In this document: in pieces, positions 22,819 through 22,838 of the stretch
How the letters are laid out: the number at the start of each line of letters is the position of its first letter
Numbering within the stretch: position 1 is the first letter of the stretch
Source: Escherichia phage 899
Length of the DNA: 33,804 nucleotides
Sequence record: PV533660.1
Strand: one strand, 5' to 3'
Notes under the pieces: model-generated
What the model was told of the DNA's origin: nothing
What the model saw: only the letters and a program-made list of their open reading frames with translations
The model's database searches: none
Position numbers and translations under genes: made by a program

Positions 22819-22838
22819 TACTGTGTATGTATACAGTA
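22819..22838. promoter_or_regulatory. LexA-binding site (SOS box), near-consensus
   Basis: TACTGTGTATGTATACAGTA matches the E. coli consensus TACTGTATATATATACAGTA at 18 of 20 positions and is a perfect CTGT-N8-ACAG palindrome; located between A stop and the cargo operon. Confidence 0.6.

Follow-up and report, generated by a model that had tools for sequence, protein, structure and literature searches.

A predicted LexA operator accompanies an exonuclease-HipL kinase cassette in P2-like and 186-like prophages

Does the near-consensus LexA box that lies between the replication gene A of Escherichia phage 899 (sequence record PV533660.1) and the cargo operon downstream of it place this operon under control of the SOS response? 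We addressed this question with the complete 33,804-nucleotide stretch of DNA (hereafter, the window) and with related loci, which are given as L numbers where they have to be told apart. The box at 22819-22838, which as a predicted operator carries no strand, reads TACTGTGTATGTATACAGTA and agrees with the LexA consensus TACTGTATATATATACAGTA at 18 of 20 positions. Both mismatches fall into the central spacer, leaving the CTGT-N8-ACAG core perfect. No other place in the window matches with three mismatches or fewer, and none of 100 dinucleotide shuffles of the window contained any such match; the calculated chance expectation for up to two mismatches is about 5e-5 per window. Scoring was carried out with a matrix built from 28 E. 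coli LexA sites, and all heterology-index values given here are approximate. With this matrix the box obtained an index of 3.7, close to the recA (4.5) and sulA (4.9) operators and within the range of proven operators, while the runner-up in the window scored 10.2. Direct comparison to the consensus thus bears out the match that the first-pass annotation had claimed, and the matrix scoring proposed there places the site beside recA and sulA.

This runner-up (24816-24835, CGCTGTTAGGATATACAGGA) also has a perfect CTGT-N8-ACAG core, and together the two cores compare with 0.28 expected in the window. It lies in coding sequence, inside the kinase gene described below. The core is intact in one relative (L098, CGCTGTTAGGATATACAGGG), but the Serratia and Proteus homologs have a disrupted CTGT half, so that the site seems to be conserved as coding sequence and not for LexA.

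The complete window is matched at 100% by the P2-like Yersinia phage GMG73 (OP880301.3), which was isolated on Y. pestis from dog swabs (PMC11126057). Its integrase gene (17010-18020, minus strand) and a gene for a 97-residue helix-turn-helix repressor (18060-18353, minus strand) are followed by cox (18506-18778), and the portal and terminase genes are on the minus strand. This repressor shares 100% identity with the C protein of Wphi and adjoins cox and int, which confirms the P2 C type that had been assigned to it from the letters alone. Prophages of 61 complete E. coli genomes share the cargo region at 100% identity. Judging from this identity and from a repressor identical to that of coliphage Wphi, the Y. 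pestis isolate is probably a prophage of E. coli with the ability to plate on Y. pestis as well. Gene A (20482-22800, plus strand) encodes a protein of 772 residues (gpA; Pfam Phage_GPA, E = 1e-123) and ends with a TGA stop at 22798-22800. The box begins at the 19th nucleotide after this stop, with 18 nt in between, and the ATG of the first cargo gene at 22979 lies 140 nt past the box, both in line with the distances claimed earlier.

The cargo operon consists of two genes on the plus strand. The first (22979-23530) encodes an Rv2179c-like DEDDh 3'-5' exonuclease of 183 residues (PF16473, E = 7e-57) and ends 9 nt before the second (23540-25183), which encodes a HipL-type kinase of 547 residues. 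[quoted passage not shown] The kinase alignment shows no variation in the catalytic motifs IGNTDRHQ.N and DNGTS. PADLOC recognises the protein both as PDC-M03A (E = 4e-31) and as PDC-M03B (E = 1e-30), i.e., as a fusion of the A and B components of the two-gene candidate system PDC-M03. The operon is closed by an intrinsic terminator-like element (25200-25231, plus strand), a hairpin at 25200-25223 with a 9-bp stem, AAACCGCCT...AGGCGGTTT, followed by TTTTT. The pairing of the two genes is not restricted to this phage: an exonuclease homolog lies directly upstream of the hip gene or genes in all eight loci examined for layout (L001, L011, L098-L103), with a gap of only about 3-20 nt in the P2- and 186-like loci among them.

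Two promoter-like sites lie between gene A and the exonuclease gene. The first, P1, is a predicted plus-strand promoter with a -35 element TTGATT (22797-22802), a spacing of 16 nt and a -10 element TACTGT (22819-22824). The -10 element is the left half-site of the LexA box, so that promoter and box would overlap in the layout annotated for p95 of phage 186, and the -35 element overlaps the end of gene A and contains its TGA stop. P1 is a weak match to the consensus (4/6 and 3/6), and a promoter scan did not report it. TTGATT, TTGAAT or TTGCTT stands at the same spacing from the box in the five close relatives, and in 23 of 30 boxed loci a hexamer with at least 4/6 agreement to the -35 consensus precedes the box by 15-19 nt, as compared to 20% at random positions. 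The second site, P2 (TTGGAA-16 nt-TAGAAT; 22882-22909, plus strand), lies downstream of the box and is not overlapped by it. P2 is the only sigma-70 consensus match between 22600 and 23100. All five members of the GMG73 group keep it, with TAGTATAGAAT invariant, but a P2-like site occurs in just 2 of 26 other contexts, and one of these two adjoins the LexA box of L011. We therefore regard P2 as a candidate LexA-independent basal promoter. In this arrangement, a LexA-occluded P1 and a box-free P2 would form a tandem, in which P2 would supply basal expression. As LexA on the box would leave P2, about 45 nt further downstream, unrepressed, the fold induction of the operon could be small, and the conservation of P2 below the box suggests that expression may not depend strictly on SOS.

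An alignment of the five close relatives gave a conserved order of -35 region, box, an indel-rich stretch of 30-45 nt, P2 and leader. Within the box, 16 of 20 positions are invariant. The conserved leader (22910-22978, plus strand) carries a Shine-Dalgarno sequence, GGAGG, at 22970-22974 and the conserved blocks TTATTTCAATAA and TTACGTTTCC. Between box and exonuclease gene, no open reading frame of at least 40 residues is listed; the stretch holds only an unconserved frame of 34 codons. From gene A through the box to the exonuclease gene, a terminator scan returned no hit. An Rfam search of the leader gave no match at E-values up to 1, and a known RNA family was therefore rejected. RNAalifold pairs TTTCCC with the Shine-Dalgarno region GGGG.GGAGG in a hairpin, but the covariation is weak (-0.48 from five sequences), and a structured leader was likewise not adopted.

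The box could belong either to the phage backbone or to the cargo. Two lines of evidence assign it to the cargo. First, about 35 different sequence types follow gene A in a set of 80 viral contigs with gpA proteins of 96-98% identity to the one studied here. Only the GMG73-type contig among them has a LexA box; with the other cargoes, the best heterology index in the 500 nt after gene A was at least 10.4. The lack of a box with some 35 other cargo types rules out a general feature of the P2 backbone at this position and shows that the box belongs to the cassette. Second, DNA homology to other P2-like A genes stops near 22785, in the last codons of gene A, and the five close relatives share a conserved block around the -35 element, TGATTTC.CTTGATTT. 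In L099, this block and the cassette lie about 430 nt past the gpA stop, and L098 has no called gpA gene. Since the block also occurs away from gpA, it is part of the cassette, and in the phage studied here it supplies the last codons and the stop of gene A. Thus, the last ~5 codons and the stop (22785-22802) are cassette-derived DNA, which puts the hotspot recombination junction inside gene A. Of 5,426 complete E. coli genomes, 61 bear the identical cassette (Ecol_656, MS8320 and EcPF40 among them), in each case in the chromosome.

Some loci show further variation around gene A. Two sister contigs with other cargo (L072:5784-5840 and L076:6328-6380) carry, about 34 nt past the end of gene A, a perfect left half-site, TACTGTATATAT..., that stands alone, without an ACAG half, and may be the remnant of a former LexA box. 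In L098 (L098:1-3440; chromosome GCA_034657195.1), the place of gene A ahead of the boxed cassette is taken by a Gp49/HTH pair and a gene for a SymE-family toxin; downstream, the portal and terminase genes are retained. This locus may represent a rearranged or degraded prophage. The symE gene of E. coli is itself LexA-regulated.

To what extent is the box retained where the surrounding DNA has diverged? A search of genome contigs with the exonuclease protein yielded one locus, a Serratia prophage with an exonuclease of 89% identity, which has TACTGTATGTGTATACAGTA at the same place within otherwise diverged flanks. The P2-like viral contig L011, whose exonuclease is 45% identical, shows the box followed by exonuclease, hipI and hipN. 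At this level of divergence, it was the sole boxed homolog and again a P2-like phage with hip genes downstream; three homologs in non-P2 contexts (L008-L010, 44% identical) are boxless, and a general association of the box with Rv2179c-like phage exonuclease genes was therefore discarded. Six HipL homologs from Enterobacterales (83-60% identity) all have an exonuclease gene directly upstream and one strong box beyond it (index 1.7-3.8). For a wider survey, the kinase alignment was searched against viral and metagenome contigs, and contexts with at least 800 nt upstream were kept. A box with an index of 0.7-7.9 was found upstream in all 30 distinct contexts that combine exonuclease and hip genes. 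These reach down to about 41% identity of the hip proteins, and the box persists in them although the flanking DNA has diverged beyond alignment. All 30 are cassettes of P2/186-like prophages with shared ancestry and hence do not count as 30 independent events. None of 250 control windows of 900 nt from the same loci contained a site below an index of 9 (minimum 9.5), and such a site was present at only 1 of 64 distinct hip loci lacking the exonuclease, some of which may come from taxa in which LexA binds another motif.

Operons of the Klebsiella type (L102:2749-2783; L115-L118, L127-L129) differ in that they carry two LexA boxes overlapping by 5 nt, e.g., TACTGTATGTATAAACAGTGgatatatatacagtt. 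Paired LexA boxes are known from colicin promoters, and by analogy the overlapping boxes suggest a tighter repression.

A position equivalent to that of the SOS promoter of phage 186 had been proposed for the box, and this comparison stood up. In 186, a LexA site and the SOS promoter p95 are annotated between gene A and tum; p95 has a -35 element TTCACA, a spacing of 18 nt and a -10 element TACTGT, which forms the first six bases of the LexA box TACTGTATGTTTATACAGTA. Both phages thus use the slot between the replication gene A and the portal gene, and in both TACTGT is the left half of a 20-bp LexA box. A distal accessory gene is another shared trait; in 186 this is orf97, which according to its annotation blocks infection by 186 if a plasmid expresses it. 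The phage studied here differs from 186 in lacking tum and any DinI gene, in the Wphi/P2 C-type instead of the 186 CI-type immunity repressor inactivated by Tum, in the distance from the gene A stop to the box (18 nt vs about 215 nt), in its 140-nt leader with a second promoter-like site, and in its exonuclease and HipL cargo. The cargo proteins contain no DinI domain.

Relatives connect the two arrangements. L119, L182 and L183 carry exonuclease and hipL after a p95-like promoter and a tum-like start whose homology to 186 p95 is plain, and L101 and L122 have a full-length tum ahead of these genes. A DinI domain is present in L101 and L114. More generally, 186-type prophages with CI, CII and Fil genes have the order box, tum or a small ORF (with or without DinI), exonuclease and hipL, as seen in Kluyvera, Klebsiella and Pantoea loci, where tum encodes 146-153 residues with a DinI domain. 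In contrast, the box is followed directly by the exonuclease gene in the C/Cox-type phages, i.e., the phage studied here and the Proteus prophage L256; this relation between immunity type and operon layout was compared in only two C-type and three CI-type loci. The conserved P2 site and leader (22882-22978) were found only in the tum-less group. A small RNA from the dinI 3'UTR of Klebsiella, DinR (PMC10907235), was set aside, as it belongs to the chromosomal dinI, a different locus. Taken together, these comparisons support a link to 186 that is evolutionary and not merely positional. The exonuclease-hipL pair would fit the distal slot of a 186-type SOS operon, at the position of orf97, and we propose that the module is a tum-less derivative of such an operon. 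That C-type phages, whose repressor is not a target of Tum, have kept the LexA box without the antirepressor argues that SOS control serves the cargo and not prophage induction.

The first-pass annotation had read the box as a LexA operator for the cargo operon, akin to 186 p95, and the comparative evidence supports this reading. We consider it likely, and hold this with good confidence, that the box is a functional LexA operator on P1 which makes exonuclease-hipL inducible by SOS, with P2 setting a basal level. The operator would cover the region of the -10 element and the start site of P1, which as a sigma-70 promoter would read rightward through the exonuclease and the HipL kinase/HIRAN genes as far as the terminator at 25200. 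As long as the lysogen suffers no damage, P1 would be closed to RNA polymerase by a box-bound LexA dimer. Upon DNA damage, RecA-stimulated self-cleavage of LexA would free P1 and induce the operon, and the box-free, conserved P2 probably gives a basal expression to which the SOS response would add. Transcripts would be expected to begin near 22831 from P1, under SOS only, and near 22916 from P2 at all times. In CI-type relatives, the same kind of promoter would drive tum/DinI or a small ORF and subsequently exonuclease-hipL, whereas phages with a non-cleavable C-type repressor would have kept LexA control of exonuclease-hipL with the antirepressor absent. What we observed is the sequence and score of the box, its conservation, its presence together with the cassette and the structure of the operon; LexA binding, the activities of P1 and P2, the transcription start and the biological role are inferred.

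The strongest competitor sees in the box the decaying remains of a tum promoter of the 186 type, so that transcription would come only from P2 and from read-through of the early operon and LexA would be without effect. The loss of tum from the cassette speaks for such a decay, as does P2 being the only promoter that the consensus scan returned and invariant in the five close relatives. A relic would hardly account for a near-consensus site whose CTGT and ACAG cores stay invariant in these relatives amid substitutions and indels nearby, for a -35 block co-conserved at fixed spacing, or for the persistence of boxes with an index of 7.9 or less in all 30 contexts. Moreover, the scarcity of P2-like sites near the exonuclease gene in other lineages makes the boxed promoter appear to be the main one there. 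The conservation is thus of a purifying kind, and we regard a relic as improbable, albeit deserving of more weight than any of the remaining explanations.

A further possibility, to which we assign very little weight, is that the palindrome serves another purpose: a promoter directed leftward, antisense to the gene A 3' end, a roadblock or hairpin against read-through, or the operator of another phage protein. A minus-strand promoter CTTACA-17 nt-TACTGT can be drawn with a -35-like hexamer of 4/6, its -10 element existing because the site is palindromic. However, the scan found no minus-strand promoter, the putative -35 element is deleted or diverged in L098 and L099, and the only ORF on this strand (22588-22812, 74 aa), which begins in cassette DNA, is contained in gene A. 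The RNA of the palindrome folds at -12.8 kcal/mol (z = -2.2), and a roadblock would suit the missing terminator after gene A, but the hairpin has no T run and was not called by the terminator scan, which also rejects the palindrome as the gene A terminator. For the operator of another protein, the fit to the LexA matrix is far better than that of a generic palindrome. A chance palindrome without function, for which nothing but the AT-rich intergenic setting can be brought forward, is effectively refuted by the shuffles and the expected number given above and by the conservation across diverged loci.

With a functional LexA operator on P1 as the favoured reading, several known systems come close to the module. 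The growth-arresting toxin genes of E. coli under direct LexA repression (tisB/istR, symE, hokE, dinQ and the dinB-yafNOP operon) are made only after DNA damage, as would be predicted here. They are chromosomal and encode mostly small membrane peptides or RNases, whereas the cassette combines a HipA-family kinase, a DNA-end-binding domain and a partner exonuclease as cargo of a prophage hotspot. The 547-residue protein shares its kinase core, HipS-like and HIRAN architecture with the HipL described by Gerdes et al. 2021 (PMC8262856), and L011 carries the split hipI-hipN form of the HipI-HipN modules. HIRAN domains bind 3' DNA ends, as reviewed in the same work. There, hipL is described as monocistronic, and LexA or SOS is not mentioned. 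In contrast, an exonuclease gene precedes hipL or hipIN in all layouts that we examined and was detected in 30 of 30 boxed contexts. DEDD dinucleases (diDNases, NrnC homologs) have been found beside HipA and HIRAN genes in Gram-positive mobile elements, with no LexA or SOS link reported (PMC11706625, 2025). Both cases place a DEDD-superfamily 3'-5' exonuclease next to HipA-domain and HIRAN-domain genes, although the subfamilies differ (NrnC-like there, Rv2179c-like PF16473 here). By analogy, this parallel suggests that exonuclease, HipA and HIRAN form a three-part functional unit. The cassette occupies the same variable locus as the P2 tin/old hotspot between gene A and the portal gene Q, from which anti-phage systems are expressed by the prophage (Rousset et al. 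2022, PMC9122126); neither this study nor a follow-up from 2026 (PMC13586616) mentions LexA or SOS control. Among the roughly 35 hotspot cargo types that we sampled, the box occurs only with the exonuclease-HipL cassette.

What could such a module do? The cargo may be a defence, exclusion or dormancy module, and our literature search found no published test of phage defence or toxicity for exonuclease-HipL/PDC-M03. Hip kinases arrest growth. Together with the affinity of HIRAN for 3' DNA ends, this makes an abortive-infection or dormancy module that is licensed by DNA damage plausible. More tentatively, and with a probability that we place well below even, the module could pass two checkpoints, in that LexA cleavage would permit its synthesis and HIRAN, by sensing free 3' ends, would switch on the arresting kinase. 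The 3'-5' exonuclease would then either make or remove the 3'-end signal for HIRAN. In this manner, a C-type prophage that is not itself SOS-inducible would tap the SOS signal of its host, and the module would protect host and prophage from co-induced or infecting phages or create damage-tolerant persister cells. If true, the module would provide the first example both of a Hip kinase gated by LexA and of a P2 defence hotspot cargo gated by SOS.

The site by itself is no surprise, since both LexA operators and the tum operon of 186 belong to textbook knowledge. What is new is that exonuclease and HipL/HipIN (PDC-M03) cassettes of P2- and 186-like prophages stand behind a LexA box in every case surveyed, that LexA control appears to survive in phages without antirepressor and with a non-cleavable repressor, and that hipL, described as monocistronic, is paired with a 3'-5' exonuclease in all layouts examined. 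The kinase/HIRAN module thereby gains DNA damage as a concrete predicted trigger. This also holds a warning, as defence screens that use native promoters in undamaged cells could score the cassette as inactive. Finally, many of the 61 E. coli genomes that bear the cassette come from clinical isolates, and a HipA-like kinase induced by SOS in such strains could thus have a bearing on fluoroquinolone tolerance.
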